From Lingula anatina (Eukaryota > Animalia > Brachiopoda): 64,000 bases of DNA. The translations under genes were made by a program, and so were the position numbers. Numbering within the stretch: position 1 is the first letter of the stretch; each line of letters opens with the position of its first letter. The stretch lies in NCBI GenBank assembly GCA_051362555.1, contig CM120641.1, positions 496,001 to 560,000 on the forward strand. The letters are read 5' to 3'. Under the pieces are notes generated by a model that was given only the letters and a program-made list of their open reading frames with translations, was not told the origin of the DNA and searched no databases. Below, one piece after another: positions 14,291-63,976 of the stretch.

Positions 14291-14885
14291 TCTCTCGTGC
14301 GTCTTTAGTAAAACTTGTTCGGCAGGTGGTTAACGAGATGAGGATCCATACATTGATAGACTCTGAAATAAAAAGACATTTAATGATTTGTACATTTGTA
14401 ACTATCAAATTGCATGTGAACTCGTTACGAGCATGAATGATTCAACGCTTGGGTTATGAGTTATGCATGGAAAGATGATTATGAAACGGCGTAACAATAG
14501 GATTGATTACCAAGCATATAATACTATAGTAATCAGGTAAATTATGCATACTAATGACTTGCATTCGACTTTGTTGTCCGACTCCAACTTGTTTGTTTTC
14601 TAGATGCATTTCAAGTGAACTCATGTACCTTAACACATTTACATAACATAATACAAAAAAACAAAAACACACACGGCAAGCCACGCATAAACTCCATAAA
14701 GTTATTAAGTTACTCTTTATGTTTGTCACAGAAAAAAACGACGAAAGTGATCGCATTTTAACATGAGGAATGGTGTGGATTTGTATAACAACCGGCGCAG
14801 CATTCACTGAAAGGTGCATGTCCACCAATAAGTAAATATTTTACCCTTCAATAAAACAAAGACTGGCCTACCATGAGAATGGCAT

Positions 14886-28693: not shown

Positions 28694-29410
28694 GTTTTTT
28701 GCTTGAGGAGTAAGTGCTGTGTAGTAAACCCATAAAGCTTGAAATTGTAATTCAATAATAAAAAAATTACCACCCACTTGTAGATGATTGCATATATAGG
28801 AAACTGGATGGTAACTGAATTTGTAAGAGAGCGCATGTGTTGGAGTTGTCTGGGTGTTGATGAAGTGTATGTCCTTGGTGGAGGACAGAAGCACTCAAGG
28901 CCAGATGCCCTCCTTGCTAGGCAGTTTTTTAGGGGTTGCATTTATTGTTTAGGACAGGTTCTGGATAACAGTACATCCTGGGAGAGGGGCCATCTCAAAA
29001 TTGTAGGGAGGCGTGTTCTCTCAGTATGTTTACACTTCATTCTTCAGCAGTTACCTCTTAGCTTGGACCTAAATAGGTCCAAGCTCTTAGTGAGTCAACA
29101 CCCCCTCTCTCTGTAATTAAGCTTTCTGTAACTTACACAAGTGTTAACATAGGAGTTATGTTTTAGGTAGAAATGCTACTACATGTAGAACATGAACTAT
29201 CAAGATAACGAAACAATGCAGTATTTCTGTCTACTAGTATATTATTGAAACCTAACCCTTTGAAAGGAGTATTTAGTTAACGGAACTCTGTACAAAACTG
29301 GTGATATGGTCCCTTAATTAAATTAATTCAAGTGAAAATCACATGACAGACTGTCACTTGAGGTCCTATTGTTTGTCTTGACAGTTTTGATCATTTCAAC
29401 CTGGAGTATC

Positions 29411-29467
29411 ATGGGGGACAGAGCCTGCTGCAGGAACTTAGTCTTTGGCATTATTTTGCTAACATTG
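29411..29467 (+). CDS. Start/signal-peptide exon ([19 protein letters not shown])
   Basis: Acceptor tcttgacag at 29384, ATG at 29411, hydrophobic core, donor gtaggt at 29468 (phase 0). Confidence 0.7.
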
Positions 29468-32400: not shown

Positions 32401-35400
32401 TTGCAAGTTCTATCATATGGGCTAGTTCATGTTGTAAAAAAAAAACTTTCTTTTTTCTTGGATTGAACTCAAAGGAGGATTTTTAGTAAACCATGGTGCA
32501 ACCATTTCACCGACTGTACAAAATTTTGGTTAATTTAAAGTAAACATGAAAACACATTAAAGCTACCTGAACTGGAAGACAGGTGTGTTGATTTAAAGGC
32601 AGCAAACAGTTGTCAAATAAAATAACTTTTAACCTCTTAACAGATACAGGAGCAAAAATTAAGTAAAATAACATTTCTGGCATTTACCTGTACATCTTCT
32701 GTTGAACATGGAGCAAGTGGTTTCTTATGAATACTCGGCAATGTTTGTAGACCAAGGAACGCAGACTAAGATATTTGTAGTTAGGAGTCATATTTATATT
32801 TACGCACCCCACCTTCCAAATTGTATTTGCTCAGTCTTAAGAGGGTTTGACCATTGGATATTATTATTATTATAAAGATTAGCATTGGGTTTCCTCTGTA
32901 TAACATATGACTGTTGCACCCAGTAGAATATGAATGATGACAAAGCTTCATGTTACATAGTAAAAGTTCATGCCCAGAAGTGGTCAAGAATTAATGGACA
33001 TTGATCTGCATTCAAGATGAATTAAAAATGAGGATATGTTTACTTACTTCAGTAAGACAAAAACATTGCCCCCCCCCCTTCCCACACACCCCAGTCACAC
33101 ACCTGTTTATTGTCCTATATCCTGGATATTAGAGTGTAGGTTTTTATAAAACAACTAAATATATTACTACCTGGCTTGGGGGTATTGCAGAAAAACATTG
33201 TACACAGGTAAAAACAATCATGAATTGCACAGTGGTAAAAGCAATATTTTGTATAATAATAATAATAATACAAAATTTAAGACCCTTTTACAGCAGTATG
33301 CTATTATGGTAAAATCTGTACCAAACACTTTGAGAAGTCCTGGCTAACCTATTATTTTTTACTACACTAGCTGTTGTACAATGTATTACTCCTTTTGACA
33401 AGTTCCTCGCAAGCTTCATCCCTGCTGTTTAGTTGATTAACTGAGGTGACTCTTTTTATGTAATAGGCAGGAAAATGAGCGGCTCTCAAAGTATACCAGT
33501 ACAGGCTTTTTTTTTTTTGGGGGGGGGGGGGGGGGAGGCATCCGACATACCAGTGGACATATTAAGATTCTGTTCTTTATATACATGTAACTACATTAGT
33601 TTGAGTATACTCCGCCTTACAGATACAAGTTTTAAGCTTTATAAGTCAGCATGTGGAATTGATTTTGTTAGAATGTGACACTTTGTTTCCTTGGTAATAT
33701 AATTCCATCTTTAATACTGAATCATATCCTGGCTTGTTTATTTAATTCTTGGTAGGTATCAAATGAAACTGAAACTGAAATAAGACAAATTGGTTTATTG
33801 TTTGAAGTACCGGGTACCATTTGAAGATGCTAGCTCAGTTAGCAAGTACTTAATAATGTCAGATTTATGCTTCTAAACCTTCCCAGATATTAACATATAC
33901 TGGAGTTACAAACGGCATAACTTTTAACGAAATATTACATTGAACAAGTATTTTCTAACTACTTCACTGCATGGTGCAGTTTTAAACTTTTTATTTCTGT
34001 TGCCCGAGAGATTAATTTTGGTTGTTTTTTGGCTTGCAGATTTTATTTGCACGGTGTAAAAAATGGGTACCATTAAATTATATTCGTTACAGGACATATT
34101 TAATACCTTCATCACATAGCTATCTTTAAGGAAAGCTCCTCTTACATCATACCTATATAAAGGAAATTTTTTAGATTGCAGTCTTTTTCTTGGCAAGTAA
34201 TTGGTATTTTAATATATAATAAAAATAATGAGTTATTTCAAAATTTTAGTTTAACTATTTTTTTTCATTTCAGGAACCTCTTTATTTGGCATTTTCATCA
34301 GAAACTGATCCTGTAGCATACAACATGACACTGCCACGTCTCCTGGGGTCCTCCACACATATGGTGTGCTCTTCTAAACACTCTCCCTCTGTCCAGGTGT
34401 GTCTACGTGTCCACCTGGCGGTGCAGTGTGGAACATATTACTATGGGGACAACTGTGATGTTTACTGTCGCATACAAGAAGGAGAAGAACGTTACACTTG
34501 CGACCCAAGGACGGGGTTGAAGAAGTGTGCAAATGGCTACAGAGGATACGGCTGCATGATCAAAGGTTGGTGTAAAAATTTTAATGCTGTGCAGGACGGC
34601 TTCTGAGGGATAAAAGTAAAATGCTTTGAACTAAGAACATCTAAAGATGTTTATTTCTTTCCTGCAAATTTTTGTTTTAAGGGAGACGATGGCAGCCAGT
34701 TAATGCATTTTATTGATGGGCTTCTCTTTTTTTTACCTCAAAAGCAAAGAAGTGTCTATAAGTACTTAACTTTAAGGAGCATTATATCTATTTTTTGTCC
34801 AGATTCCTCCATCAAAAGGATCCTGATAACAAAGTTATCTGGGAAAATCAGTGACAGTTGATAAAATATTGGTAATGTGTACATTTTTGAAATATTCTTT
34901 TTTTGTTGAATTGTTTCAGACATTAGCATAAATCACCATACTGGGGCCAGGTTATTCCAGGCTGGGGACCATGAAACAATGGGTCCTTGGGTTCCAAGTT
35001 CTAGTCAAGGTTAATATTCTTAAAGGTCCACCAGTCTGACCTGATCCCTTACTTCAATACCATACATTTTTTCAGGACACTTTTCATTAAACAGTTGAGG
35101 TCAGTGGTAGTCACCATGTAAAAAACAGACTTCTTACATTATAAAGATTGCTGGAGGCATCTTCAGTGGGATATTTTAGTATTTAAAGTAAATTTCAGAT
35201 ATATTCTAGGGACCACATCAATTTTTTTGTATATTGTCCCATATACTCAAATACTCAAAATCAAAATAACCCACTGTACTTGTAAGTGTATATATCTGCT
35301 TGTTCACTTTAAATTTGAAAGTTTTGGGTATTTATTGCTCCTTCAAAACATGTACACCAATTCACCATGTAACTTTGGCCTGTTTGTTTGAAAGAAAACC

Positions 35401-35558
35401 ATGCTGCAACATGCGTTCCTTGTGATATCCATGCAGTTGTCTAATTCCTAGCTCAGACTTGATAGACGACATTTGACTTGACTCAGCAGCAGCTCTGCTA
35501 ATTGTGTGAACAAAATTTAATTTGGGATCTGCCGTGGAATATGTAATCTGTGTGAAAT

Positions 35559-35599
<41 letters not shown>

Positions 35600-38500
35600 T
35601 CAAAGGTTATAGCACCCTTCAAGGGCAGTATATATTCATTGTCAGTTGTTTTTGCAAATCAAGAGATTCAATCAACTTGTATTCACACTGCATGCTGTCT
35701 AAGGACAACTTATGTACATTCATGAGTGGATTTTGCTTTTATTTAAATTAAGCCCTTATTTGGAACTGGTTGTACATATTAATAACTAATAAATCAATGA
35801 AAATTTCTAGTCTTAACACTAGCTGAAATTTGAAGTCATGACCCATAGCATTAAGTGGGCCTTGTCTGGCTTCTGTGACTTTCTCAAAACCTGTACAGAT
35901 TACATTACCTCTATTCTACATAGTTGAAAATTCATTAAAGACATCACTGTCAAAAACAATATATAGGATGATTGATATTTGGGCAGTTAAAGTTGTTTTT
36001 AATTTTGCCAAACTCTGATGAGACTTCATGGCTCCACCTTAACTAATTGACTAGGTGTAATCAAAATAGCCATCTAAATGATTGATCAACTCAGTTGTTA
36101 ACTGCCATGGCCAGGAAGTTATTGTAATCAGTTATGGATAAATGAATTCTTCAAAATTACAGGACATGGTCTTATTGGGGTAAGTTACTGATAGTTTATC
36201 AAAATTTTAGCTAATGAATTTCCTTACTTGTATGTGGATGTAGGGGGGGGGGGGATTTGGTATAATAAATAATAATGCATATTGGGGAGACACAGTGCCA
36301 AAACTGTTATTTATGGCCCCAGTGGATCCAAACTTTTGATATCATTGTGGAATTTTATTATTTTATTTATTATTTTTTAGGGGGGCAGTCACAATGTTGT
36401 AAAAAAGTTTTGCATCCCTGGTTTTGTTCTGCATGGTTTTTCTTTTAAATGAAAAATGAGAACCAAATATCTATGTTCAAAGACAGCTACATGTAACATA
36501 TGCGATATGAATATTAATGATTGATAATTGAATGTCAGACATGCTCCCGTCATGAGATCTCCATATAAATAGAATATTGTTGGGAATTGGCATTTATGTA
36601 TGTCTATGCATTCAGCCTAGAAATCTGAGAATAACCTAGGATTGCAAAAGTAGCCAGGCCCCTCATGTCCAGTTGTGAAGGTCAGTATCAACTTGACCTT
36701 TTAAATTATCCTGCTGTGGTATACAAAGTTGATTGCACATGTACTTTTACTGATATATTATGTAATTGGCAGAGTTTCTGTTCTTTTCATAGAATGTAAA
36801 CTATAACCATTTTTTGTCTATTTTGTATAGTTCAACATCAAAAAGCATCTGATCTGTATTTTAGTTGTACCCATCTGTCAGATCAAAACGCTACTGATGG
36901 ATGATGGGGGGGGGGGGGGGGAGGGGAGGGGGGGGGGCATGGGGGTTTGCCCTACTAGAGTACCTCCAAGCTTCTCACTTAAAGGAAAAAACATGCAGAA
37001 CAAAACCAGGGCTACAATACAATTTTACAACATTGTGATTACTCAAGAAAAAAAAACCAATAGTCTACATTATGTGGAATAAACACATGAATGATTATAT
37101 GACTGTGCACAGCCGTACAAGAACATTGAACAATAATGAATTAAAGAACACAGGAAATTAAGTTGTAGATCAATTGAGGAGAAATGTGACAAGATGTTTT
37201 TACTGCTTTTACCCTGTATGTGCTACCCAGAGCTTTCTACAGCTCACTCCAGATACTGTGACACATCGAGATTGGTGTGACATTTAAAAAAAATCTTTTT
37301 GATATATTTAATTTTGTCAGTTTCATGCATTTAGCTATTTCAAACAGGGCTGGTTGAGGATAAATTATTCAACCTAAAAACTTTTTATTTTGCAGAAATC
37401 TAAAAATTGTAAAAACAATTAAGTATCAATATTTAACATTAGTATTAAAATATTATTGCTGGCATTGTGTGCACATGTCATGTAAACTACACACTGCATG
37501 AAGGAAGTACAATTTGATGGGAGTTATAGTTTCCAACTTTGGTGATAAGTTTGTCCTGGCAGTTTAATCTCTGTGTAAGATCACTGGATGACCAAAGTCA
37601 AATTGTGGATATAAAAGCTTTAAAATATCAATGTTTTTCAGCATTTGATAGTGATACCACCTTAGGGCTTTCTAGTGTTTGGGATAAATATACAAATATT
37701 AGTGACAGATCTGGGCAGAGACACAGAAACCAGCAAAATAGCAACAGATGTAGAAAACATTGAACAATATGAATAAAGAACAATGAAATTAAGTTGGAGA
37801 TCAATTGAGGAAAAATGTGACAAGATGTTTTTACTGCTTTTACCCTGTATATGTAACAAGTGAATCTTCAACTACTTCAGCTGTCACGTTTAGAGATTCC
37901 ACAATTAAATGAAATGTGCATTTAAAGTGGATTTTAGTTGACATCAAAGAGAAACTTGCTGGTTAAAATTATCAATTCATAAGAACTTGCTTGTACATGT
38001 AGTACAATAAATAAATATTAAACAGATATATCAACAAAAGTGGCAAATGGGCTTACCTTCTCCTTGGTGATTTAACTACTCTTTAAGGTCAATACTTTGT
38101 CCAGAAATAAAAATTCTGAGAGCTCACTGTTTACTGAAATAAAGTTGCCCTATTGCACAATTTCATATCTGCCCTGGCATCAAATTATAATAAAATTGAA
38201 TCAAATTTGTTCAAGTATACTTGCCTCTATTGATTGATTCCTCTGTATATTTTCATGCTAAGACTAGCTCTCAAGGAAAAAGGACAGGTGTGAAATTTCA
38301 CATCTCTTCCTCAGGTGCGTGAGTCTGACTGCTGGTTTCTGTAGAGAAGTTCTGGTAATTTGGCCTGCCCTCTGCAGAGAGAGAGATAAGTGCTACCAAT
38401 GATAATGTAATCAGTAATGCTCTTTTCTGCTATGTTGTTTTCAGTGGTAATCTGTCAGCAATGAATATCTTATTATAAATCTGTCGGTCCCCAGCGGAGC

Positions 38501-41500
38501 TCTTGATTAGTTTGCTGATTAGAACTCACATGAGAACACTGCCAGAATACAATAGACATAAGACATCAAGGTGTGAGATATCAGTTAACAAAACATTTAT
38601 TGATTCAAACTATTATTACTGAATAATTAATACATACAATCACGAATTCAATACCAATTATGAGGAACAAAAGTGGTTGAGATTGGCCTAGGGCTCATTC
38701 ACATCCGATCCAACTCCGCAGCCAGACCCTCACTGGATCATACAATCAGGTTAACAGACTAAGATGCTGCCTCCTGGTATTGAGTAGAATATAGAAAATC
38801 TGGTGATAATACCAGAATGTTGGAAACAACAGGGGGCATGCTTACCTGTTAAACTTATTGCATTCAGCAAGAGTCCTCACAGAGTTGGATTGATCTTCGT
38901 AGGTTGATACTTTCATTGGAAATGAGCCCTAATTGTGCTGCTTGGATTTAGAGGGCCTTTGTATAACTGTCGGGACACAGCTTAGAATATCAATATTCTG
39001 AGAGCTTCAACAAAAAATGGATATCAAATTTTTATCAATATTGTTTTCCAGATTCCCAACACATATACAAGTTGTCTTTTTTTTTTTTTTTGCTGTTGAT
39101 TGACACTGTTTATGGCATTATGTGTTTCATTATCCAGTCAAGCATACAGTACCTGATATGATCTACTATTACATGGGAAGCCTTTAAGTATGTAATGTTG
39201 TATACTTATCAAATTTTCAGTATGCTGAATCATTAGGCTAGGCAAAAATACAGGAGGTTCTTGCAGAACTGAAGTCAGCTTTTTATTTTGTGTTGGATGC
39301 ATTTGTTACAGAGTGCGTTCCATGTGGTTGATATTAAGACCAGTTAAATCCACACCTGTGGTGACTGAATGAAAGTAATTTTTCTCCAAGCAATTCATTT
39401 TTTATCCACAACTAAATGTTACGTTATTTTTGGATGTACATGTACGAGAAGTAATCACATTTATTTCCCCTCTAGAAATCACATAAAGGGGAAAAAAGGC
39501 AAATTGTTTATTTTGCCATTTCTTAATTGTACTAGTGGCTTGTCTTGCCTTCAGTGTGGTATTTCAGTCTTCTTTGGAGCTCAGTTTCAACTCGGTAGGT
39601 TCTTGCCATTATATCCTATATCCATCTAGGTAAATGGCAGAGCTCTGGGGGCACATTGCCCAGAGTTAAATACAGAACAGTGAGGCAGTTTGGTACAATT
39701 GTTCTATCAGAAATGTTGTAGTGGCCCCAGTGTGGATATGATATTGTGATGAATGTCTGTTTTGAGGTCTGACTTGATGTAAATGTTTATCATTAATTCT
39801 CTGTAGTGAAGTTAGAGGTGAGTGGCTGCTAAGAACCCCTTTTTATCATGGGTAGGAATATCATTTTATGATTACAGTTCTCCCAACACCAAACCAATTT
39901 GAATTAACAATAAAAGTAAGAAAATGGGAAGATTTAATTAGCAGAAGTGTGTTTACAATGAAAATAATACTTGGATACATGGATATGCATTTATCTAATA
40001 TATGATTTAACTAGTACATGTATATATAGGAGGTATAATTTGCTTAATATCTTTATGCTTTAACGGAAATGTTTTTAAGATAGTTGTCAATTTCTGGTAA
40101 AGCAATATCTATATTCTGGTCTGTAAACTTGCTATTTCATGATTTTATTAGGAGTGGGTGGTAACTGGCTCTTGAATAGTACATATGTTTTATAGCTAAA
40201 TATTGGGCCCATCATACTCATTTAGAATTTCCATCTTAATGGTCAGAATTTAGTACTTTGAAGGGAATATGCTTGGCCTATCGACAGAAACAATATTATT
40301 ATAGTGGAATTCTCAACTAAGCATCCAGCAGTGACCGCGGTTGCCTATATATAAGGTAGAACCAGGATTCCAGGCTCAGTATTTTATAGCCATTCATTCA
40401 CACCATACTTAATTCCCAGCACTACTTGATAGCTCTGGTCTATTTATTGTGTTGATATTTTGATTTATATTTATTGCTTTGGTAGTGCAGTGTATACTCC
40501 TGGTATACTAATTCCTATCACGATTTTAAGACTAGGTTCACATACCTAGATTGATCTAACAGGATCGATCCATCTCCGAAGGGTTTCTCACAAAATTGCA
40601 TTCAGCTGAAGCCGCTTAATTAGATGTCTGGCACACCTTCTGAAGCTGCTAAATGATAATGAATTACCCCTAGTAGCTTCAGTCGGCATGACAGTTATCT
40701 TAGCCCCTTAAGTTGATTGCAATTTAGCAAGAATCCCCTTGGAGATAGATTGATCCACAGTTAGTACGATGGCGTCTGGGAATGGTCCCTATAAGTGTAA
40801 TTGCTGGGTTGTGCAATAATTTAAGCCTTCAGGTTTTTTATGTAACCGTACTCTGGTATACCCTGTATCATATATGTTATAGTTACAAAGATATGCATAG
40901 CCTTTGCATACTTCAGTATACCCACCATGCAGTCTCTGTTCGTTAGATGTAAAATGGATAACTAAATTATACACAGAAACCTACAGGGAAGACAAGTTAT
41001 TTGGCTTTAATCTTAAAACTTCTTTGATCACAAACATGATCAGTTCTAAGGAATCACTGCAATGTACAAGTGGAAATATCACATTATTCCAAGAATGAAT
41101 CTTCTCGCATGTACGGCCTATGTTTAGTGATATGGTCCTCAGGCCAAAACCTGGAATTTTGTTTTATATTTTAGTCTGAGAGTTTGATAATGTTAATATA
41201 TTTGTAGATAGTTCTGCCAATAATGCAAGTAAAATTAGGGCCTTAATAATTAGATTTTATGAATGTTTGTATTATGTATCCATTAATGTTTTAGGGAAAT
41301 TGGTTTTGGCACAGATTTATAATTATTAAGTTTTGCAAATGTGTAAAAGGAATGTAGATTGTTAATGCTTCCAAATATACACACAGTATTGTGTTAAGTT
41401 GTGAAAATAGACTTGTAAAAATAGATAAATCCATATTTAATACTTACATTAATGCAAAAGTAGTAGAAAATTGCAAATGATCTGAAGCACTCTAAGAGAA

Positions 41501-44500
41501 CAAAGAAGTGTACTAATTAAAGTTGGCTCTTTTCTAGAAAAGACAAGCTGTGCAGATGAGTTTTTTCATTTCGTCCAATTACTAAATCATGTAGCAGCGC
41601 TTTGACAATTGTTTTGATTTCAGTTGACCAGCATGAGTTGACTTGCAAATAAGATCCAAAACTAATGCTCCAAGCTTGCTTTTTATGTACAGACACTGTG
41701 AGTGGATTCAGAACAGAGGACTAACTGATCTGCGGATCAAATATGGTGGTCTACCCACTAAAATACTTTCCAATTAGACACTGAATAGATTCCCCATGGG
41801 GATAATTCAACAAGCATTCAAGTGGATTGGCCATATTTGATCCGGGGCCGTAGCGATAGTCCGAAGGTTCAATAGTCCGAAGGTTCATTGCTCCGAATGT
41901 TCACTATAGAACCTTCGGACCAATGAACCCTTGATTAAAAAATCGATAAAAATTTTACCACTTTTCGGACCAATGAACCTTCGGACCAATGAACCTTCGG
42001 ACTATCGAGACGCCCCCTTTGATCCATGGATTCGTTAGGCTGCTGTACATTCTGAATACACTTTGTATGTCTGGACATATAGCCACCACCTGTCTGTGTG
42101 CGCCATTAGCAACAGTGTGCACTTTTCTCACTTTTTTAAAACATGTTTATTAGTTTATGAGAATTATAATTAGTGTTCCTCACTTAATCATAAAAAGGCA
42201 AATTGCATTTTTATCTGGTTAGTTGATTTAGTTGAAAATATACCACAGATTTCTTTTAACTCTATTGTATAGTAAACAAATAGTTTTTGATATACCAGTA
42301 GTTAATACACCCAATTATGTATGATTTCTTATTAGCCAAAGAGTTAAGGCCCTTTTAAATTTTGAGCACTTGAAATGGCATTTTGTAATTAATTTAATAA
42401 ATAATAACTTATTTAAAGTGTTACAGTCTGCATATTCTCACTTGCACCATATATAGTGATGTCTGAGGGTCCTCCCTCTATAGGGTAAATGATGACAATA
42501 TGATAAACCTAGGGCAATCAGAATTATTAACTCTGTTGTACATTATGACATCATATCAGCATGGCATATTACACATGTTAACAGCAAGTATAATTTGAGA
42601 AATGAGAAAGTAAGTGGAAAATGGCATATCAACATGTGTACCATTAGATTTGTTGCAATTATATGGTGATTTTGTGGTAGACGGGGTATGATGAAAAACC
42701 ACTTCTTGACTTCATATTTAACTTGGTTCAAACTCATTTAAAGTTGATTTATATAAATATCATATGAAGAAATTGACATTGACGTGATTTATCTTGACAT
42801 CTTGTACTTGAGGTGAGTGTGTGTGGCTGGGGTGGGGGTGGTGGGGGGGGGGTCTAGGTGTTGTATGAAGAAATTATAACGTTACCATTTCTAGTAACCT
42901 GAGTATATGTACAGCTAGGGTACCTGCTATAAAAGTGGTTACTACTAGTACATGTATTGACCATATACATCTGTAATTATCTTGTCTCTTTCTTTATCAC
43001 AGTTAAAATCAAGTGATTAAATTTGTTTAATAAGGATTTTTGGGGCCTTGCACTCACTGATCCACAGATCAAATATGGCCGACCCACTTGAAAGCTTGCT
43101 GCCAAAACCCCACATAGAATCCATTAGGGGAAACAAGGAATCAGTTATTCCATGGATCAACTTGTTTCTGAACAGGCCCTTAGATCATTTCTTAGACATG
43201 GGATTCTTATTGCAGACAGTAGCTGTAAAAAGTTCTGGCAAATATTCAGTGCAGAAAAACCTTTTCATGACCCATGAAACCCAAATAGTCACTGATAACA
43301 AGAATATTGAAATGTGCAAAAATGGACCAGTTGAAGAGAAACCAACTGTTCATTTTGGCCAGAAAATGGATTTTCCTGGTGTAAGGGACAATTTTCCCAT
43401 CCTTACCAATGGTTAATGAAAACATTCTGACATTCAAAGTTAGTCCTTGGTTTTTTCTAAAAAGTTTTTTTTTTGTAATATTCCCTTAAGAAATGATTAC
43501 AGAGTGTATACCCATCTATGGAGGTTACGTGATGTGATGGCAAGCACAAACTCCAGAATTATTGCATTAACCGCTGTTTTGGTAGTAAAATAGAATTAAT
43601 TATTATATTTCTGTAAGTTGTTTACAATGTATTTATTGTGCACTATGGATATCATAGAAACAGTTGTTATCCCTTTAATTGTACCACCAGCGTTGGTGCT
43701 GGCGGTACACATGGTTTTAGTCTCGTCCGGTCCGTTCCGCCGGCTCCGACGGCTCCGCCACCATGTTACCGTTACCGCTTCTCCTCCTAGACGGTAAGGG
43801 CCTCCATACCCATCTCTTGGATTTAGGTCACATATAATCTCAACTCGTTCCACGTAAAATTTGGGCTTTGTCGGTATTGGGGTCTAGGTGTGGCACTCAT
43901 TGCAATGCACCCTTGTCCAAAAATGGCAAAATTAAATGCTAATTATCTACCCTACAGAAGGAATTATGGGAAAAATTTCTACAGACGGCTTTCCAAAAGT
44001 CATATGTGTAAATTTCAAATATGCCCTTGGATTTGACCTTTGACCTTTATTTCAAGGTCAAACGGGCCAAAATTTTCAAAAAATGAATTTTTTTATGAAA
44101 AAAAAATTATTTGCGCTGTTATTCAGACACCACACAGACTTAACCGATAATATTATTGAAAAGTGTTACCCTTTGGGTCATCTTTCATTTCCGTGAATTT
44201 GGGGTCAATCGGTGCATTTTCACAGGAGTAGCGGCCATAAAATACCGAAACTGAAAACTGTCTCTAATTTGGGAACCGTTAATGCTAGAGACCCATTCTT
44301 TTTTGCATTTTGTAGAGCATGTAGAGCCCAACACTGGAAGTGGTCTCCGTTTTTTTGTATTCCATACGGTTTTCAAGTTACGCTGTATCAAAATGTACAT
44401 ATTGGTGGTGAAAGCAAAATGTGCAGTACGGTAATGGATAATAAATTTTGAACTCCGGAAAAATAAAACAAAAGGCTTGGCGAGGCAGACAACTTGTGGT

Positions 44501-47500
44501 CAAAAATGACATTATTTCATCAAATTTGAACATCTGGAACTTCAGAGCACCTCCCATTTCAAGAATTTTGACCAAAATGACCTTTTCTTTATTTTAATTA
44601 ATTTTTTTCTGTAGGAAATTTATGGCACATTATTGTAACTCCAAAATTATAACATTTAGTCCCTTATATCTCCAAAACTGGCAGAGATAGGTCCATAGTT
44701 ACTATTGAAGTTGAATAGGAAGTCATATACTGGCAATCTAAATGTGACCTTGAAATTGACCTTTGACCTACTTTTCATTATGAATTGAACTTTGCAAATT
44801 TTGGTTCCCTTTTATCTCCAAAACTGGCAGAGATAGGTCTATGGTTACTATTAAACTTGAATAGGAAGTCATATACTGGCAATCTAAATGTGACCTTGAA
44901 ATTGACCTTTGACCTACTTTTCATCATAAACTGAACTTTGCAACTTTTTAATGCTTTTATTTTCAAAACTGGCAGAGATACGCCCATTGTTACTATTGAA
45001 TTTGAATAGAAAGTCATTAGAGGCAATTTACTGTGACCTTGAAATAGACCTTTGACCTACTTTACATCTTAAACTGAACTTTGTTTTTATTTTCAAAACT
45101 GGCAGAGATACGCCCATAGTTACTATTGAATTTGAATAGAAAGTCAGTAGAGGCAATTTACTGTGACCTTAAAATTGACCCTTGACCTACTTTTAACCAT
45201 GAACTGAACTTTGCAAATTTTGGTTCCCTTTTATCTCCAAAACTGGCAGAGATAGGTCCATGGTTACTATTAAACTTGAATAGGAAGTCATATACTGGCA
45301 ATCTAAATGTGACCTTGAAATTGACCTTTGACCTACTTTTCATCATAAATTGAAGTTTACAAATTTTCGTTCCCTTTTATCTCCAAAACTGGCAGAGATA
45401 GGTCCATAGTTACTATTGAACTTGAATAGGAAGTCATATACTGACAAAAAAATGTGACCTTGAAATTGGCCTTTGACCTACTTTTCATCATGAATTAAAC
45501 TTTGCAAAATTTGGTTCCCTTTTATCTCCAAAACTGGCAGAGATAGGTCCATAGTTACTATTGAACTTAAATATGAAGTCATTAAAGGCAATTTACTGTG
45601 ACCTTTAAATTGACCTTTGACCTACTTTTTACCATGAACTTAACTTTGCAAATTTTGGTTCCCTTTTATCTCCAAAACTGGCAAAGATATGTCCATAGTT
45701 ACTATTGAATTTGAATAGGAAGTCATATACTGGCAATCTAAGTGTGACCTTGAAATTGACCTTTGACTTACTTTTTATCATGAATTGAAGTTTACAAATT
45801 TTTGTTCCCCTTTATCTCCAAAACTGGCAGAGATAGGTCCATAGTTGCTATTGAACTTGAATAGGAAGTCATATACTGGAAATTTACTGTGACCTTGAAA
45901 TTGATCTTTGACCTACCTTACTATGAACTGAACTTTGATTGTACCATTTTTAGTTATATATATTTTTTGCATATTTTGAGAATTCTTGTTGATTGCATTT
46001 TTTACAGCTTGTCAAGCACAAGACAGGTGTTGGTGTCCCTTTTTTTTTTGTGTGTGGGGGTCTATATGATCGCGCTTACTCCAGCTGGTGGTACAATATT
46101 CGGAGGCGGTATCGCCTCTCTGATCCTCTAGTTGTAATTGAAGCTGTGAAGCCCTGGGATCAGATGTTGTAGCTGAGATGTTACTCTTGCATTGCCACAG
46201 TCACCTTGGGTGTTAATTGCTGATCCCTTCTAGCTGTTTGCAAAACTGAATTATGAAAATCTTTCCAGTTGTGTTCCAGGAATTTAAAGGTCCTTTGGAT
46301 ACTGAATGTGTACATGTATGATCAGTATATGATTGAAGATGGATTGTGCTTCTTTTTATTTTTTATGTTCTTTTACTTAATGTGGCAACTGTTTCTAGTT
46401 GCAAAAACAAAGTTCTGGAAATAGACACATTTTCTGTCATCCACAATTATTTGTAGATAACCTCCCATTTGTTTTTCAATTGCAAGTATTCCTAGCTGAC
46501 AAAACAGCCCATAGTTTCCTGACGTATGGAGGGCGACGACGTCATAAACGAGCCAATAGCTTTTTTGAGGAGTTCAAAGAAGGCAATTTTGAGAGAGAAT
46601 GTGTCGAGGAGACGTGTAGCTGGGATGAAGCCATGGAGATCTATGAGAATTATGAGAGGGCTGTGAGTTAAAGGGCATGACATATATGCAACCATAAATA
46701 TAGCATTTACTGTATGTATTATATGCCATATATATGCTATTGTTTGCCAGCTCAATCTGCATGTTTTACATATTATGTGCAATGTTTTCCTACATTAAAC
46801 ATATATATGCATGTTAATATATACGTATACAGGTATAATTTCCATTTGTGCCCAGGTGTGAAATACTTATTATATGACATTATATATTTTTATGCCTGTA
46901 TGGAATGTTTGCCTATACATGTGTAGCTATTTACCCTGCATGTTTTGGATATGTGCATTCTTATTTCAATTTCTATAATCTCTATATGTGTGAACTGGCC
47001 CCTATCAGGTGCCAGACATCTATAGCTAGCTGTCACTGTAATTATATACTCCTGCCCTGGTATACCCATGTTACTGACAGGTGGCATGTGTGTCTTTAAT
47101 TTTTTTTAATATGTTTTCTCTTCTAAGTTTCCTTTTTCTTTTACTTTCTGTTAGCAGAACAGGTGTGTTACACCGCCTTATCAGAGGACTGTATTCTTGG
47201 TGTCTTTTTTTTTGGTGTTTTTCTTTTTTCTGAAAATGTGTGTTGGGAAAGCATTTTATAGATTTTTTGTTGCCAAAACTCATTATTTACTTATGAATGA
47301 CATCCTGTAATTGCTTGAAGTTAATGCCACACAGTTGTTTTTTTAACCAACAAAAGTAAAAATGAAAATGTCAGACAGCTAAATGATGCACAGTGGTTAT
47401 GAGGCAAATACAGAAGGTAGCTTGAAACAGACTATTTCACCTGGCACTCCAGGTAACTCCCACTGTGTAACACACTCAGAACAGGTGTCTTGTTAGAATT

Positions 47501-48111
47501 CAGTTGTTGTTGTTTAAAAAGATTGTTCAGGTGAAGGTGTGCATGCACTTATATAACCTGCATGGTTGCCTAAGTACATCAGTAAGCTTGAAAAACTTTT
47601 GTAAAACTATGAAATATATTTGTTTTACAAGGCACTGAACATGCAATTTTCAGCATTTTTCAAGTGGACTCAGTCATTATTAAATAACAAAATCAATTTG
47701 TGTTTGTGTATGAGTGCATGTGTGTGCGTGTGTATGTGTGTGCAGACATGCTGAAAACTTTTCAAAATGGCTGGACATTTGGACAGGCAGTAATGAAAAA
47801 TTTGCCAGACCCAATGGATTTTTGTCGGACCGAAAATCAACCTATTCGTTTGAGACAGATACTACCAGTACGATCAGGGTAGCTTACTTTGTTTGTGAAT
47901 GTGAAAGTTTTGAAATGGAAGGGAAAAAACGCTTTGTTTTTGTAAAATTTTATTAGTAAAGTATGACGAACGATGACTGTAAATTCAAAATTACGGTTCT
48001 TAAAACTCTTGTCAGTCCTTTGGACTGACCAAGTCCAATTTTTTACCAGCCCAGACAAATTTTCCCAGTCATGACCGATCGGACCGACACAGCATGTCTG
48101 GTGTGTATGTA

Positions 48112-48142
<31 letters not shown>

Positions 48143-51099
48143 TGTATTTTGGCATATCACATACTATATTATGCTTTCCAGTATTTCTAGACCAGCATGA
48201 TGCTAGAACTTTCCTGCATGCACATGCGCGTTCTAAGCGTGCGAACACGGGCTGGCTGGGTACGGAGGAGGTGCTGGCAGGGAACCTGGAGCGCGAGTGC
48301 GTAGAGGAAGTGTGTTCTTGGGAGGAAGCAAATGAAGTCTTTGAGAATGGAGAGAGAACCGTAAGGAGAAGCAGAATTGAGCAAGATGTCCTGATGCAGC
48401 TTATTGCATTTATTAAATTACTATACTATGTTATTTATAATTCGTATTATTTTTCAAGTTAATGGACTTTGGCCCTTTTTTTTTTAAATGAATAGAATAT
48501 GCACTTTAAAGTATTTAGATGAAGATATAAATGAATGTTTTTCCTTCTTTGCTTGCTAGTTTTATTGAACCATTTAACCAATAAACTATGAATTAAACCT
48601 CTTGTATGGACCCATGAGTACAATTCTATACCTTCTGTGTGTATTTATATATGATTAATGAACTTCAAACATGACATGTTTAAAACATTATGGCTATATA
48701 CTAGTAATGAATCTCAAAATCTGATATATCTTGGTACTAAAATTAACCCCCAGTGACTTATCTTTTACCCTATAACTATTTGTACATGTACCAGCTTTTA
48801 TGTTCATATCCTGTCACTGTTTCACAGTTGGTGTGATATTTACCATAAATATCTATTTCAGAGAGAGTACTGGGTAAGGAGAAATGGTATGTAATTTGTT
48901 TTAAATTATTCTTTAATTGGAAATATATTTTTATATGTAATGGAAAAATATAATTTAATTTGGCAATTGTCTGACATTTGACTTTGTTCCATGTTGTGAC
49001 ATATATACATTACGAAATCAGCTGTGATAATTTTTTAAAGATTGGTCCATTTTTATGCCAGATCCTAACCAGTGTGATTCCAACCCGTGTGTCTCAGAGG
49101 GGACCAGCAGATGTGAAGATTTATTCCAAAACTATAGATGTCACTGCAGGCAAGGATACACTGGAAGCAATTGTCACATCAGTGAGTCAGAATGTCCACA
49201 TGCAACTCACATCAGCTGTCATATAGCAGTTTCAAGACATTTATGTACTTATATATAAAATTCCACAATATGGGCCTACCCTTAAGAGTTGAGTTGTTGT
49301 TTTTGTTTTATTAGGAGGAGAGAGGGTGGGGGAGATTATGTATATACTGAGTATTGCAGGAACTCACAAACCCAATCTGAAAAACATTTTTATCTGTTCT
49401 CAGATATAGATGACTGTGGGACAAATTGTCTAAATGGAGCTATATGCACTGTAGGTATACAACTGTATGATATCTTTATTAATCAGAGATTTTGACAACC
49501 CATTTAAAAACCTTATTTATGAAATTGCTTTGTTTATTGTATATGCTGCAAATTAAAAGATTGTGTTTAATATTGTCATTAATGGCATACAACTTTATGT
49601 ATGTCTGTATATTAAAAGCATATATATATATACATGTACAAATAAAACTGACTTTAAAAATGAAAAGAATTCTGCTCACAATCTTACTTTCCAGGACCTG
49701 ATCAATGACTATCACTGCACCTGTGCCCCAGGATTCCGAGGCACTAACTGTGAAATTAACATTAATGAGTGCCAGAGCAACCCTTGTCAAAATGGTGCCA
49801 CGTGTCAGGACGGAGCAAACCGTTGGAGCTGCCAGTGTGCTCCAGGATGGACAGGTTAGTGGTCGTTTTGAATTAGCTTTAATTTCAGACTGCTGCTGTT
49901 ATTTGTTTCAAATTGTTTCTAATATAGATTACATTTACCAAAAAGTGAGGGTATTAACTTGAAGACCCAGTTGGAAGCACAGGAAGCAAAGCTCAAGAAC
50001 GTAATTACACGTTATAATATTTCTCAGTCCCAGTTCATACTTATTAAACAAGTATACTTTTCTATCTGACCAACAGATGAATTCACAGTAACAGTTAATG
50101 GGACAGAAGTCTGTTAGCTAGTCAAATATTTGGGTAAATCCTACCTCCTCCTTCCCAAATTGGAGTAGGGTTGGGGAGCCAGCTTGCAGCATATCCTGGC
50201 CATATACTGGACCCTTAGAGAGGAACAAAATTTACCAAATCTTATCTAGATTACTTAATCTTATGATACATCAACATAGATATATTATATGACAGTGCAA
50301 AGGTATCATTTGAGTACCATCAAACTCTGTGCTTCTGATGACTGTATGCTATCTCAATGTAATTACTATGGTAGTGTGGTGAAAATTTAAGAATTTTGCT
50401 GGCTTTGAAAATTTTGTTAGCAGATGATTTTTCTGCTGAAGATTTTTTTTCACTTTGAAAAATTACCCAAAACTAAAAAAAGAGACTTGCTTATCAGCTT
50501 TAAAATTATTTTTATCAGGTGTATCCTGCCAGTTGGACATCAATGAATGTATGTCGGCACCTTGTCTGAATGGCGGAACATGTAACAATCTGCAGAACAT
50601 GTTTACCTGTGATTGTGTCCAGGGATTTGCAGGGAATGGATGTGAAATTAATGTGGATGATTGTTACCTTGATCATTGCCTGAATGGTATGGCAGTGTTT
50701 TTTAAGTATTGTTTGTCATTCAATATTCCTGAGGACGTTGATATTTATATATTTTTCAATCTCAAGATGTGTTATAATATTTTCCTGGATTTTTTTTCTT
50801 GTTTTAACAAACCACAGACCTTTGTTGGTTTATAAGCTTGGCTTTATAATTTTGCAAAAACACATTTCTTTTCAAGAAAAATTTCCTTATAATATAATCA
50901 GACAAATAAGTTCTTTATCATACTTTTTTCACAGGTGGTACTTGCATTGATTTAGTCAATGACTTCAGCTGTATCTGTCCAGCAGGATTCTCTGGTACGT
51001 CATGTGAAGTCAACGTTAATGAGTGTGAGAGTTCTCCCTGCCTGAACCAAGCTACCTGTATTGATGCTGACAATGGCTTCCTGTGTGAATGTTTACCTG
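29411..51099 (+). CDS. Multi-exon secreted or membrane protein: signal peptide, C2/MNNL-like, DSL, Gla (alternative exons), EGF repeats; 3' end outside the window
   Basis: Exons 29411-29467, 31742-31975, 34274-34565, [46487-46662 or 48182-48360], 48862-48886, 49062-49181, 49404-49450, 49695-49854, 50519-50686, 50935-51099 all have GT-AG ends and compatible phases. The join across 34566-46486 is inferred. Confidence 0.65.
30247..30447. mobile_element. Partial CAGTGGCG-family MITE copy
   Basis: Shares ccatttggtac.gtttagaactatgat and ttttcagaaatc with the 1318 copy; ends ccggcactg. Confidence 0.65.
31742..31975 (+). CDS. Exon with end of signal peptide and C2/MNNL-like region
   Basis: tcttctag acceptor, 78 stop-free codons ([15 protein letters not shown]...CKLDFTHWK), gtataa donor, phase 0-0; the G.GFVEI start and F..W end loosely resemble the N-terminal domain of Notch ligands. 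Confidence 0.65.
34274..34565 (+). CDS. DSL-domain exon
   Basis: ttttcag acceptor; [45 protein letters not shown] matches the six-cysteine DSL pattern; donor gttggt, phase 1. Confidence 0.88.
37122..37853. repeat. Dispersed ~100-bp direct repeat (about 37122-37222 and 37756-37853)
   Basis: aacattgaacaat...gatcaattgagga.aaatgtgacaagatgtttttactgcttttaccctgtat occurs twice. Confidence 0.8.
41844..42017. mobile_element. MITE with ~16-bp subterminal repeats (ccgaaggttca / tgaaccttcgg)
   Basis: GGGG...CCCC ends, inverted subterminal arrays, tttgatcc duplicated on both flanks; second copy at 61136-61293. Confidence 0.85.
43676..46133 (+). mobile_element. Helentron/HINE-like non-autonomous element carrying a satellite array
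   Basis: subTIRs attgtaccaccagc (43678) / gctggtggtacaat (46084), 5' hairpin, GTCC-like microsatellite, 3' stem-loop gaggcg-gtat-cgcctc, ctagtt end. Confidence 0.8.
44660..45940. repeat. ~145-bp tandem satellite, about 9 units
   Basis: aaaactggca recurs at 44674, 44820, 44965, 45095, 45239, 45385, 45530, 45674 and 45820; each unit has a tgaccttgaaattgacctttgacct-like core. Confidence 0.95.
46487..46662 (+). CDS. Propeptide + Gla domain exon A
   Basis: [59 protein letters not shown]; phase-1 acceptor (46486 or 46495), gtgagt donor phase 0. Confidence 0.88.
47743..48100. mobile_element. hAT-like MITE between the two Gla exons
   Basis: 11-bp TIRs cagacatgctg / cagcatgtctg, inserted in a (TG)n tract. 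Confidence 0.6.
48182..48360 (+). CDS. Propeptide + Gla domain exon B
   Basis: [60 protein letters not shown]; tttccag acceptor phase 1, gtaagg donor phase 0. Confidence 0.92.
48862..48886 (+). CDS. 25-nt aromatic-stack microexon (REYWVRRN)
   Basis: tatttcag acceptor, gtatgt donor, phase 0-1; links either Gla exon in frame to the first EGF exon. Confidence 0.85.
49062..49181 (+). CDS. EGF exon 1
   Basis: [40 protein letters not shown]; AG/GT, phase 1-1. Confidence 0.92.
49404..49450 (+). CDS. EGF2 first half
   Basis: [16 protein letters not shown]; ttctcag acceptor, gtaggt donor. Confidence 0.88.
49695..49854 (+). CDS. EGF2 second half and EGF3
   Basis: [53 protein letters not shown]; AG/GT. 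Confidence 0.93.
50519..50686 (+). CDS. EGF3 end, EGF4, EGF5 start
   Basis: [56 protein letters not shown]; AG/GT. Confidence 0.93.
50935..51099 (+). CDS. EGF5 end and incomplete EGF6
   Basis: [55 protein letters not shown]; tttcacag acceptor, gtaggt donor; sixth Cys missing, so the gene continues. Not in the ORF track. Confidence 0.92.
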
Positions 51100-52386: not shown

Positions 52387-53456
52387 TTAGTCACGGCTGC
52401 CTAAAATGATATCAGTGGTGCTGAACTTTTGATGGTACCAATAGAGGTCCCATGCACTCACAAATTCCTCTGCATCAAGTAAGCCATTTGCATTCTGATC
52501 AATAGCATCAAAAATTGGTTGAATCTTGGCTGTGTTGCGAAAAACAAAAAGGAATTTGGAATACTCATCTATTGTCAACTTGCCATTGCAGTCAATATCA
52601 AACGTGCCAAACATATTTGATGAGATTTCAGCGACCTTCTCTGTTGAAATAGGAATATCTATCTCAGACTCTTGAAGAAATTCTTCCAGTGTAATGTTTG
52701 TTTTATAGTTTGTGTATTTGTTTGACCAAAAGACCCGAAAGGCATTGGAAAAAATACCATTCACTGCCATAGCTCTCCAAGATGGCAGAACTTTTTGAGC
52801 TCGTTTTGTTGTTAAACCAACATGTTCCTCTTCAGTAACGATGCCATCTTCATCAACGTCGATGATGTCAAAGAATGCTTTGTACTTGGTAGCCCAGTAG
52901 GAACTAAACTTTCGGTTGGTGTTCTAAAATATGAAGAAGAAATTATCCGTCTTTCATATTAGGAGTTGATCTCTGGCTATGATTTATATATCATATTTTG
53001 CAGGTGTATTAATTGTTTTAGATATAACATTTTCTTGCATGTATTTTGCTTAAATATTTGAAAAATATTTTTGAATAGGGTTTAAAATGGACATACAGTA
53101 TGAGATGCTGTAATTGTTTTTAACTGGTGTATTATTTTTCTTAGAAATGACATTGATTATGCCAAATAAATATTGGCTTTATGAAAAATTGGTTTCTTGA
53201 TGTTGAGTCACCATCCAAGAAAAAAAAATTCTCTAATTCAATAAAGTGAAACACACTAAAAGGTTACAGACTAGCAGAAATTTCCACCCCAACTCCCTGT
53301 ACTTAAGAACCATATACTGCCTGCCTGACAATACTGTCTTAGCTTGTTTAACTAAACCAGTGAACACTTTTCTGGACCTACCTTTAAAATACTTGAAGAA
53401 TCAACAGCAAGAACAGCAACCAGTAGGAGCAGACTTATCAGCTTAATGGATGACAT
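52387..53456 (-). CDS. Secreted SCP/calexcitin-like EF-hand protein, copy 1 (203 aa; coding exons 53456-53382 and 52923-52387)
   Basis: Exon MSSIKLISLLLLVAVLAVDSSSILK|gtaggt joins in phase 0 to ttttag|NTNRKFSSYWATKYKAFF...; EF loops DVDEDGIVTEEE, DIDCNGKLTIDE, DQNANGLLDAEE; second EF hand degenerate. Confidence 0.88.
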
Positions 53457-55572: not shown

Positions 55573-56638
55573 TTAGGCACGGCTACCAAAAATGATATCA
55601 GTGGTACTGAAATTTTGATGGTACCAATAGAGGTCCCATGCACTAATAAATTCCTCTGCATCAAGGAAGCCATTTGCATTTTGATCAATTGCATCAAATA
55701 TTGGTTGAATCTCAGCTGTGTTGCGAAAAACAAAAAGGAATTTGGAATACTCATCTACTGTCCACTTGCCATCGCAGTCAATATAAAACGTGCCAAACAA
55801 ATCTGATGTGAGTTCAGCAACCTCCTTGATTGTAATAGGAATGTCTATCTCAGACTCTTGAAGAAATTCTTCCAACGTAATGTTTGTTTTATAGTTTGTG
55901 TGTTTGTTTGACCAAAAGACCCGAAAGGCATTGGAATACATACCATTCATTGCCAAAGCTCTCCAAGATGGCAGAACTTTTTGAGCTCGTTTTGTTGTTA
56001 AACCAACATATTCCTCTTCAGTAACGATGCCATCTTCATCAACGTCAATGATATCAAAGAATGCTTTGTACTTGGTAATCCAGTAGGAACTAAAGTTTCG
56101 GTTGGTGTTCTAAAATATGAAGAAATTATCCGTCTTTCATATTAGGAGTTGATCTCTGGCTGGGATATATATTTAATATTTTGCAGGTTTATTATTTGTT
56201 TTAGATATGACATTTTCTTACATGTATTTTGTTTGAATATTTGAAAATTATTTTTGAATAGGGTTTAAAATGGACATACAGTATGAGATGCTGTAATTGT
56301 TTTGAACAGGTGAATTATTTTTCTTAGAAATGACATTGATTATGCCAAATAAAAATTGGCTTTATGAAAAATTGGTTTCTTGATGTTGAGTCACCATCCA
56401 AGAAATAAAATCCTCTAATTCAATGAAGTGAAACACACTGAAAGGTTACAGACCAGCAGAAAATTCCACCCCAACTCCCTGTACTTAAGAACCATATACT
56501 GCCTGCCTGACAATGTTGTCTTAGCTTGTTTAACTAAACCAGTGAACACTTTTCTGGACCTACCTTCAAAACACTTGAAGAATCAACAACAAGAACAGCA
56601 ACCAGTAGGAGCAGACTTATCAGCTTAATGGATACCAT
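55573..56638 (-). CDS. Secreted SCP/calexcitin-like EF-hand protein, copy 2 (203 aa; coding exons 56638-56564 and 56109-55573)
   Basis: Same structure as copy 1 (MVSIKLISLLLLVAVLVVDSSSVLK|NTNRNFSSYWITKY...); EF3 loop starts with Y instead of D. Confidence 0.87.
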
Positions 56639-58189: not shown

Positions 58190-58870
58190 TTTGTGTACAG
58201 ACACAGATGTGTCTGTACATATAGCCGTCACCTGCGTCTGTCGTCGCCGTTGCCGGTGCCGTTGGCGTGCACTTTTACCGTAAACACGATAAGTGGAAAA
58301 CGGTTTTACGTTTTGGCTTGAAACTTACAGAACTGATGAATATTCATAATATTCAGCTCAAGTTCGAAAATCAGTATGATCGGGCCATTTTTAGTGAAGT
58401 TATGCTGTTTTTTCACTTTTTTCAGCATATATGCATTGCCGTAAACACGATAAATGGAAAACGGGTTTACCTTTTGGTTTGAAACTTACAGAACTGATGA
58501 ATATTCATAATACGCAGGTCAAGTTTGAAAATCAGCATGATTGGGTCATTTTTAGGGAAGTTATGTATTTTTTTCACTTTTTTCAATGTATATGCAACAC
58601 CGTAAACATGATAAGTGAGAAACCGTTTTACCTTTTGACTTGAAACTTACAGAACTGATGAATATTCATAATATGCAGGTCAAGTTCAAAAATTGGCTTG
58701 ATTGGACTATTTTTACAAAAGTTATGCTGTTTTTTCCTTTATTCAGCATACATGCAACACTGATAACGCATTTTAAGGAAAACTAATCAGCCTTTTGTCT
58801 TGCAACTCAAAGGAGTGATCAATCTGACCAGTATACAGATCAAGTTTGAAAATAAGCTTGATCAGTTAAG
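58190..58870 (+). mobile_element. Helentron/HINE-like 5' end with ~161-bp tandem repeats
   Basis: Hairpin tgtacagacacagatgtgtctgtaca, (gtc/gccgtt)-type microsatellite, gaaacttacagaactgatgaatattcataat at 58320, 58481 and 58642, degenerate unit near 58800; 3' end not identified. Confidence 0.7.
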
Positions 58871-62912: not shown

Positions 62913-63976
62913 TTAGGCACGGCTACCAAAAATGATATCAGTGGTACTGAAATTTTGATGGTACCAATAGCGGTCGCATGCACTAACAAATTCCTCTGCA
63001 TCAAGGAAGCCATTTGCATTCTGATCAATAGCATCAAAAATTGGTTGAATCTTAGCTGTGTTTCGATAAACAAAAAGGAATTTGGAATACTCATCTACTG
63101 TCAACTTGCCATCGCAGTCAATATCAAATATGCCAAACACATTTGATGAGATTTCAGCGACCTCCTCTGTTGAAATAGGAATGTCTATCTCAGATTCTTG
63201 AAGAAAGTCTCCCAACGTAATGTTTGTTTTATAGTTTGTGTATTTGTTTGACCACCAGACCCGAAAGCCATTGGAAAACATACCATTCACCGACATAGCT
63301 CTCCAAGATGGCAGAACTTTTTGAGCTCGTTTTGTTGTTAAACCAACAAGTTCCTCTTCAGTAACGATGCCATCTTCATCTACGTCAATGATGTCAAAGA
63401 ATGCTTTGTAATTAGTAACCCAGTAGGAACTTAGTTTCGGTTGGTGTTCTAAAATATGAAGAAATGATCCGTCTTTCATATTAGGAGTTGATCTCTGGCT
63501 GGGATATATATTTTATATTTTGCAGGTTTATTATTTGTTTTAGATATGACATTTTCTTGCATGTATTTTGTTTGAATATTTGAAAACTATTTTTGAATAG
63601 GGTTTAAAATGGACATACAGTATGAGATGCTGTAATTGTTTTGAACAGGTGAATTATTTTTCTTAGAAATGACATTGATTATGCCAAATAAAAATTGGCT
63701 TTATGAAAAATTGGTTTCTTGATGTTGAGTCACCATCCAAGAAAAAAATCCTCTAGTTCAATGAAGTGAAACAGACTGAAAGGTCCCAGACCAGCAGAAA
63801 ATTCCACCCCAACTCCCTGTATTTAAGAACCATATACTGCCTGCCTGACAATACTGTCTTAGCTTGTTTAACTAAACCAATGGATGCTTTTCTAGACCTA
63901 CCTTCAAAATACTTGAAGAATCAACAGCAAGAACAGCAACCAGTAGGAACAGACTTATCAGCTTAATGGATGCCAT
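62913..63976 (-). pseudogene. EF-hand gene copy 3, frameshifted in the spliced form; alternative 188-aa signal-less ORF 63479-62913
   Basis: Signal exon 63976-63902 intact, but the main exon is 536 nt versus 537 in copies 1 and 2, so the splice reads NTNRN-stop (TAA at 63433-63431); the rest of the frame is open. Confidence 0.7.

Follow-up and report, generated by a model that had tools for sequence, protein, structure and literature searches.

Two diverged Gla exons inside a Delta-like DSL-EGF gene of Lingula anatina and their probable use as alternatives

We found that a Gla cassette, made of a propeptide, a furin-type cleavage site and a Gla domain, lies in Lingula not at the N-terminus of a protein but internally, within a Delta-like DSL-EGF protein. 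The gene carries this cassette twice, as two diverged exons that we call exon A and exon B. The two exons are probably spliced in a mutually exclusive manner, each mRNA taking one or the other, and the exclusion is likely enforced by a frameshift followed by mRNA decay. Both are contained in a 64-kb window, by which we mean the whole stretch of 64,000 nucleotides analysed here. The first-pass annotation of this DNA had described the Gla exons, which are real, and had missed that the cassette sits inside a DSL-EGF gene, a setting that changes what a splice switch would do.

Exon A (46487–46662, + strand, 176 nt) and exon B (48182–48360, + strand, 179 nt) both run from phase 1 to phase 0; A is flanked by an AAG acceptor and a GTGAGT donor, and B by a CAG acceptor and a GTAAGG donor. 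Exon A encodes a propeptide, an RHKR site and a Gla domain with a factor X-like N-terminal segment of 13 residues, and exon B a propeptide, an RSKR site and a Gla domain with an N-terminal segment of 16 residues. In each of them 11 Glu follow the dibasic site and both Cys are present. The YW pair is supplied by a separate aromatic-stack exon (48862–48886, + strand, 25 nt, phase 0 to 1), which reads REYWVRRN and fits either A or B. Gla domains are described as having 9–13 Glu and a conserved aromatic stack (PMC9669250). Pfam Gla (PF00594) matched exon A with 48.2 bits and exon B with 52.8 bits (cut-off 27), and the two encoded proteins are 56% identical. When the six frames of the window were scanned with an HMM built from 119 Gla stretches, exactly two Gla copies were recovered. 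The architecture given by the first-pass annotation was re-derived in full, including coordinates, phases, open frames, propeptides, RxKR sites and 11 Glu per exon; its statement that there is one stack exon, downstream of B, also held, as a search that scored short exons for resemblance to the stack recovered it there and yielded no other in the A–B intron. On a rough score, the acceptor of exon B ranked at the 96th percentile among AGs, and that of exon A, a weak AAG, at the 73rd.

The divergence of the N-terminal loops, pointed out earlier, was seen again: the loop of A has 13 residues, 4 of them aromatic, whereas that of B has 16 residues and one aromatic (Trp). The alignment of exon A with factor X starts at residue 1, and 13 residues precede the EREC motif. 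The 16-residue segment of B includes a Glu pair at positions 9–10. Where the site is clear, the vertebrate rows have 13–14 residues in the corresponding segment, and P0138, the relative from Tubulanus presented below, has 14; two PRRG rows give 16–17 residues, which we took as the pattern choosing an earlier site. From these sequences, it is plausible that the A and B Gla domains bind membranes differently. In the propeptides, the spacing of Phe, Ala and Leu is preserved, these residues being found at −21/−15/−11 in A and at −19/−13/−9 in B. The consensus places Phe at −16, Ala at −10 and Leu at −6 ahead of the dibasic site (PMC5578492); compared with vertebrates, the register is further from the cut by 5 residues in A and by 3 in B.

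The DSL exon (34274–34565, + strand, phase 0 to 1) lies 12 kb upstream of the Gla exons and encodes the end of a C2-like region followed by a DSL domain. It was matched by Pfam DSL with 25.9 bits (cut-off 24.2), by hhalign with 98.5% against a profile of 16 DSL proteins and by P0138 in tblastn with an E value of 9e-11. Downstream of the stack exon, the first EGF exon (49062–49181, + strand, phase 1 to 1) has a Pfam EGF match, RNA reads and 50% identity to the EGF of P0138. It is followed by four further EGF exons (49404–49450, 49695–49854, 50519–50686 and 50935–51099, all + strand), and the five together encode at least six EGF repeats, the last one incomplete. The gene runs on past 51099, where a donor is present, but no further exon of it was identified in the window, and no transmembrane segment was found for it there.

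Upstream of the DSL exon, two candidate exons can be proposed. One (29385–29467, + strand) was picked by eye; it has AG/GT flanks, an ATG at 29411 and a signal-peptide-like reading, and ends in phase 0. Its similarity to the relative is not significant, as 759 of 1000 shuffles scored as high. The other (31742–31975, + strand, phase 0 to 0, 78 aa) has AG/GT flanks, an open frame and a fitting length, and lies where the first half of the C2-like domain would be expected; its similarity to the relative and to the C2-DSL profile is likewise not significant. Joined to the downstream exons, both candidates form an open chain from the ATG. An HMM of 27 C2-like N-termini gave no significant exon upstream.

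Splicing exon A to exon B at the canonical sites reads Y-F-stop, which reproduces, for these sites, the immediate stop claimed by the first-pass annotation. By contrast with the chains DSL-A-stack-EGF and DSL-B-stack-EGF, which are open for 384 aa and 385 aa, respectively, DSL-A-B-stack meets a stop after 158 aa and DSL-stack, with neither Gla exon, after 105 aa. Either A or B alone reads on in frame through the stack into the EGF exons; A+B does not. We favour the A-or-B reading because A alone and B alone are the Gla-containing combinations that keep the frame. The stops of the off-frame mRNAs are located 490–690 nt before the last known junction. It should be noted that joining 34565 to 49062, which leaves out the stack exon together with A and B, also keeps a DSL-EGF frame open and produces an ordinary Delta-like N-terminus; this skip form is absent from the few RNA reads. 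Near A and B, 21 short pairs of inverted repeats were detected in this one sequence, none convincing as a docking/selector pairing.

Comparison of the two exons gave a pS of 0.80 and a pN of 0.33 overall, and of 0.95 and 0.22, respectively, in the Gla core. The GTGAGT donor of exon A sits at the position homologous to the B donor, and the frequency of GTRAGT in the neighbouring intron is 0.0007 per site. Given that synonymous sites are saturated, yet the Gla consensus and the consensus donor are retained, both exons appear to have been under selection for a long time. Through most of the history of the pair, exon A seems to have been selected together with B, a recent death of A being possible. 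The intron flanks of A and B have no detectable remaining similarity, and an assembly or haplotype duplicate was therefore ruled out as the origin of the pair. In a 63-column Gla tree A was not paired with B, and B was placed beside a fish protein Z row (96/83); the tree is mostly unresolved (19 of 27 branches open) and leaves the duplication undated.

RNA evidence came from nine runs selected by species label, four of which were mapped over 48150–49480, with 6–25% of each run read. This region extends from exon B to the second EGF exon; exon A and the DSL exon lie outside it. At an identity of at least 95%, 12 reads were obtained (X1, 0; X4, 5; X7, 1; X2, 6). Their junctions were reconstructed from bin depths, none reaching the joint-calling threshold, and splice models reproduced the bin depths exactly for the X2, X4 and X7 reads. 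In X2, a single pair occurs three times; its mates span B (47 nt)-stack-EGF1 and EGF1-EGF2. A read pair in X4 passes into B through its acceptor, coming from an upstream exon that ends in AG, and two letters beyond the exon border still match; the end of the DSL exon shares 2 of these letters and the end of exon A shares 0, and any exon with a like ending fits. The remaining three reads of X4 have loose ends that link 49450 with the 49695–49854 exon, and the single X7 read continues unspliced across the B acceptor. Exon B is spliced at both ends, with one fragment per junction. Of the two junctions that the first-pass annotation had named as diagnostic, 48360 to 48862 was found (one fragment, X2), and 46662 to 48862 was seen in none of the 12 reads, among which a single fragment crosses into the stack exon, from B. 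The X2 reads also carry a silent G>A change at 49099 (6/6 reads, two start places).

Three other readings of the locus have to be weighed against the mutually exclusive use of A and B. It could be that only B is used now, with A either silenced not long ago or employed very rarely, and that a working switch does not exist. Every Gla-exon RNA fragment indeed supports B, and the acceptor of exon A is weak. We simulated neutral decay in 4000 runs, counting exon A as intact when the frame, all 13 Glu/Cys and the KR were retained: a dead exon still looked intact in 43% of the runs at 0.02 substitutions per site, a proportion that fell to 11.5% at 0.05, 1.4% at 0.1 and 0% at 0.2. However, the saturated synonymous divergence implies that A was retained through most of the period that followed the duplication, and exon A encodes a more canonical Gla domain than exon B does. 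Moreover, the RNA sample amounts to one junction fragment, in a mapped region that does not include exon A. Altogether, we regard the sole use of B as unlikely. It is far less credible that exon A serves as an alternative last exon, so that polyadenylated transcripts ending with A would encode a short, secreted C2-DSL-Gla protein and those with B the long one. Read-through of the A donor does end in A-V-S-stop, three codons on, and an ATTAAA occurs at 46794, but the neighbouring intron has 2.3 such hexamers per kb and the consensus donor of A is retained at the homologous site; the product would also be devoid of the aromatic stack, a conserved part of Gla domains according to the account given in PMC9669250.

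The least probable of these readings, in our estimation, is that non-canonical splice sites or a spacer exon bring A and B together in one frame, yielding a tandem double-Gla precursor with two furin cuts. The frame barrier applies only to canonical sites, and A and B come into frame if splicing uses the acceptor at 48196 or, alternatively, a donor shifted by +4 (46666). On a rough consensus, however, the +4 donor scores −8.3 compared with 1.9 for the canonical donor of exon A, and the acceptor at 48196 would remove the propeptide Phe of exon B. The first-pass annotation had also raised the possibility of a missed microexon in the A–B intron (46663–48181). This intron contains 117 stop-free phase 0-to-1 AG..GT candidates, of which none (0/117) starts with the aromatic-stack motif, and the scored search mentioned above agrees with this. 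One of these candidates, 47081–47162, is T-rich, with good-looking splice sites and a hydrophobic reading; it may have arisen by chance, or may serve as a spacer exon or as an exon giving B a signal peptide. The sole RNA pair entering B fits an upstream exon sharing two letters, rather than exon A (0 letters) or 47081–47162 (3 letters; a depth of 0.71 expected vs. 0.67 seen), which leaves the latter candidate without support from this pair. As for mutually exclusive splicing itself, the points that speak against it are the RNA junctions involving B only, the weak acceptor of A, the shifted propeptide register and the lack of pairing between A and B in the tree.

If mutually exclusive splicing holds, each mRNA would take A or B between the DSL exon and the single stack exon, and the off-frame mRNAs (A+B, or neither with the stack kept) would be removed by nonsense-mediated decay, which has been described as an enforcer of exclusion in two-exon clusters (PMC6071210). 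Gamma-glutamyl carboxylase would bind the internal propeptide and carboxylate the Glu residues; in vertebrates, the propeptide to which the carboxylase binds is cleaved off afterwards, and contact with phospholipid is made by the omega loop (PMC5578492). Cleavage at RxKR by a furin-type protease would then free the N-terminus of the Gla domain and part the C2-DSL module from the Gla-EGF chain. The choice of exon would set the omega loop at the tip of this chain, either canonical and factor X-like (A) or three residues longer and bearing a Trp (B). A third in-frame form is possible, in which both Gla exons and the stack exon are skipped and the DSL exon is joined straight to EGF. The C2 domains of Jagged1, Dll1 and Serrate are described as binding phospholipid with calcium (PMC3888931). 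Taken as a whole, the gene might encode a vitamin K-dependent relative of Notch ligands, in which splicing picks or drops the Gla cassette and furin sheds C2-DSL and exposes the chosen tip, so that a DSL signal would be coupled to gamma-carboxylation and to the state of the membrane lipids; we put forward this complete scheme tentatively and with considerable doubt.

Homologues of the gene were sought starting from the DSL exon. Phmmer returned 92 matches, only one of which has a Gla domain, namely P0138 (Tubulanus polymorphus XP_074663134.1, uncharacterized protein LOC141915481, 292 aa). Tubulanus polymorphus is a nemertean. In P0138 a signal-like start is followed by a C2-like region, DSL, a propeptide, KR, one Gla domain, the stack and one EGF. 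In the window, the significant tblastn matches of P0138 correspond to the DSL, Gla and EGF parts, and its Gla domain resembles A (51%) and B (47%) to a similar degree. Judged from this sequence, the DSL-Gla-EGF architecture is common to at least one other animal, where it is known from one protein record. The AlphaFold model of P0138, built from 21 sequences, has a mean pLDDT of 72 and is of low confidence across the Gla part; its best 16 listed matches are C2-DSL chains of Notch ligands (E values from 1e-8 to 3e-6), followed by other C2 domains. The N-terminal part of P0138 is therefore predicted to fold like the C2-DSL of Notch ligands. The Atlas model of P0138 aligns with Delta-like clusters at a TM below 0.5.

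Neither the 92 DSL matches nor 16 metagenome loci revealed another species with two Gla exons, a further point against the mutually exclusive reading. The latter were obtained from 162 pattern matches; a Gla motif was flagged in 14 of the 16, and neither a DSL domain nor a second Gla was present in any (0 of 16 in both cases). Twelve of these loci (L004–L014 and L016) encode signal-propeptide-Gla proteins with EGF or other tails, unlike vertebrate clotting factors. A word-based homologue search with the DSL exon gave 0 of 31 candidates. With the A/B profile, 236 of 322 candidates matched, and the 120 listed are named vertebrate Gla proteins or unnamed records, with no DSL family member among them. 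The P0138 region was found in 0 of 104 longer proteins, and an Atlas search with exon B returned generic Gla clusters only.

Like the Lingula gene, P0138 has an internal propeptide and Gla domain between DSL and EGF, in the same domain order; unlike it, P0138 has one Gla in the protein record and a 14-residue N-terminal segment, and ends after one EGF. With the vertebrate Gla proteins (factors VII, IX and X, protein C, prothrombin, Gas6 and PRRG1-4), the Lingula gene shares the Gla consensus, the Cys pair, the YW stack and the succession of Gla and EGF. In these vertebrate proteins, however, the cassette directly follows the signal peptide, whereas in the Lingula gene and P0138 it is internal and preceded in frame by DSL. 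The factor IX gene has a propeptide/Gla exon of phase 1-0 and a stack exon of 25 nt, a layout that the Lingula gene matches. Vertebrate-type Gla domains are also found in invertebrate proteins that do not act in clotting, such as Ci-Gla1-4 of the tunicate Ciona and Gla-RTK of Halocynthia. Among vertebrate paralogues, the length of the Gla loop is described as varying by one residue (PMC9669250), whereas the Lingula gene holds two loops three residues apart within one gene.

DSL Notch ligands (Jagged1, DLL1, DLL4, and Drosophila Delta and Serrate) combine a DSL domain with EGF repeats, as the Lingula gene does. Their EGF repeats directly follow DSL, whereas in the Gla-containing forms of Lingula the propeptide, the furin-type site and the Gla domain intervene; the Lingula gene is thus built like a Notch ligand without being filed as one. 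Exclusive exons of the FGFR2 IIIb/IIIc type likewise form a homologous pair with a length not divisible by three and give a premature stop when both are included, as described in PMC6071210. In Lingula, by contrast, the swapped unit is an entire propeptide, cleavage site and Gla domain, and exclusivity is predicted here. DSL genes are described as expanded and recombined in lophotrochozoans, and neither Gla nor carboxylation is mentioned in that source (PMC8166818). A whole-word search of the literature, covering neither most subscription journals nor the Ciona Gla study, found no report combining 'Gla domain' and 'DSL', and no work joining mutually exclusive exons with Gla domains was found, PMC12804869 and PMC3141003 being unrelated. 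The parts, i.e., Gla domains, DSL ligands and tandem-duplicated exclusive exons, are known, and their combination in one gene is a new variant.

Gamma-carboxylase is present in invertebrates, where its purpose is considered unclear, and fly knockouts are described as having no apparent defect (PMC5578492). The gene described here is a concrete candidate substrate of this enzyme, with a signalling-type architecture common to a nemertean. If both exons are used, they would constitute a natural pair of Gla domains on an identical body, differing mainly in the membrane loop, and would make the role of this loop testable. If the complete scheme is true, an animal that lacks the clotting cascade of vertebrates has a vitamin K-dependent relative of Notch ligands.

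Other features were observed in the window. Three similar EF-hand open frames (52390–52923, 55576–56109 and 62916–63512, − strand; Pfam EF-hand) lie in duplicated blocks, and resemble sarcoplasmic calcium-binding proteins. Since they are on the opposite strand and after the last identified donor, they are probably nested in an intron of the DSL-Gla-EGF gene. An intronless-looking frame of 376 aa at 13202–14329 (− strand) encodes a rhodopsin-family GPCR (Pfam 7tm_1, Srw), and broken transposase frames with a DDE_3 match occupy 3032–4023 (+ strand). Finally, the window contains two tandem arrays, one at 58277–58760 (161 bp × 3) and the other at 44660–45937 (146 bp × 8.9), the latter ending 550 bp before exon A.
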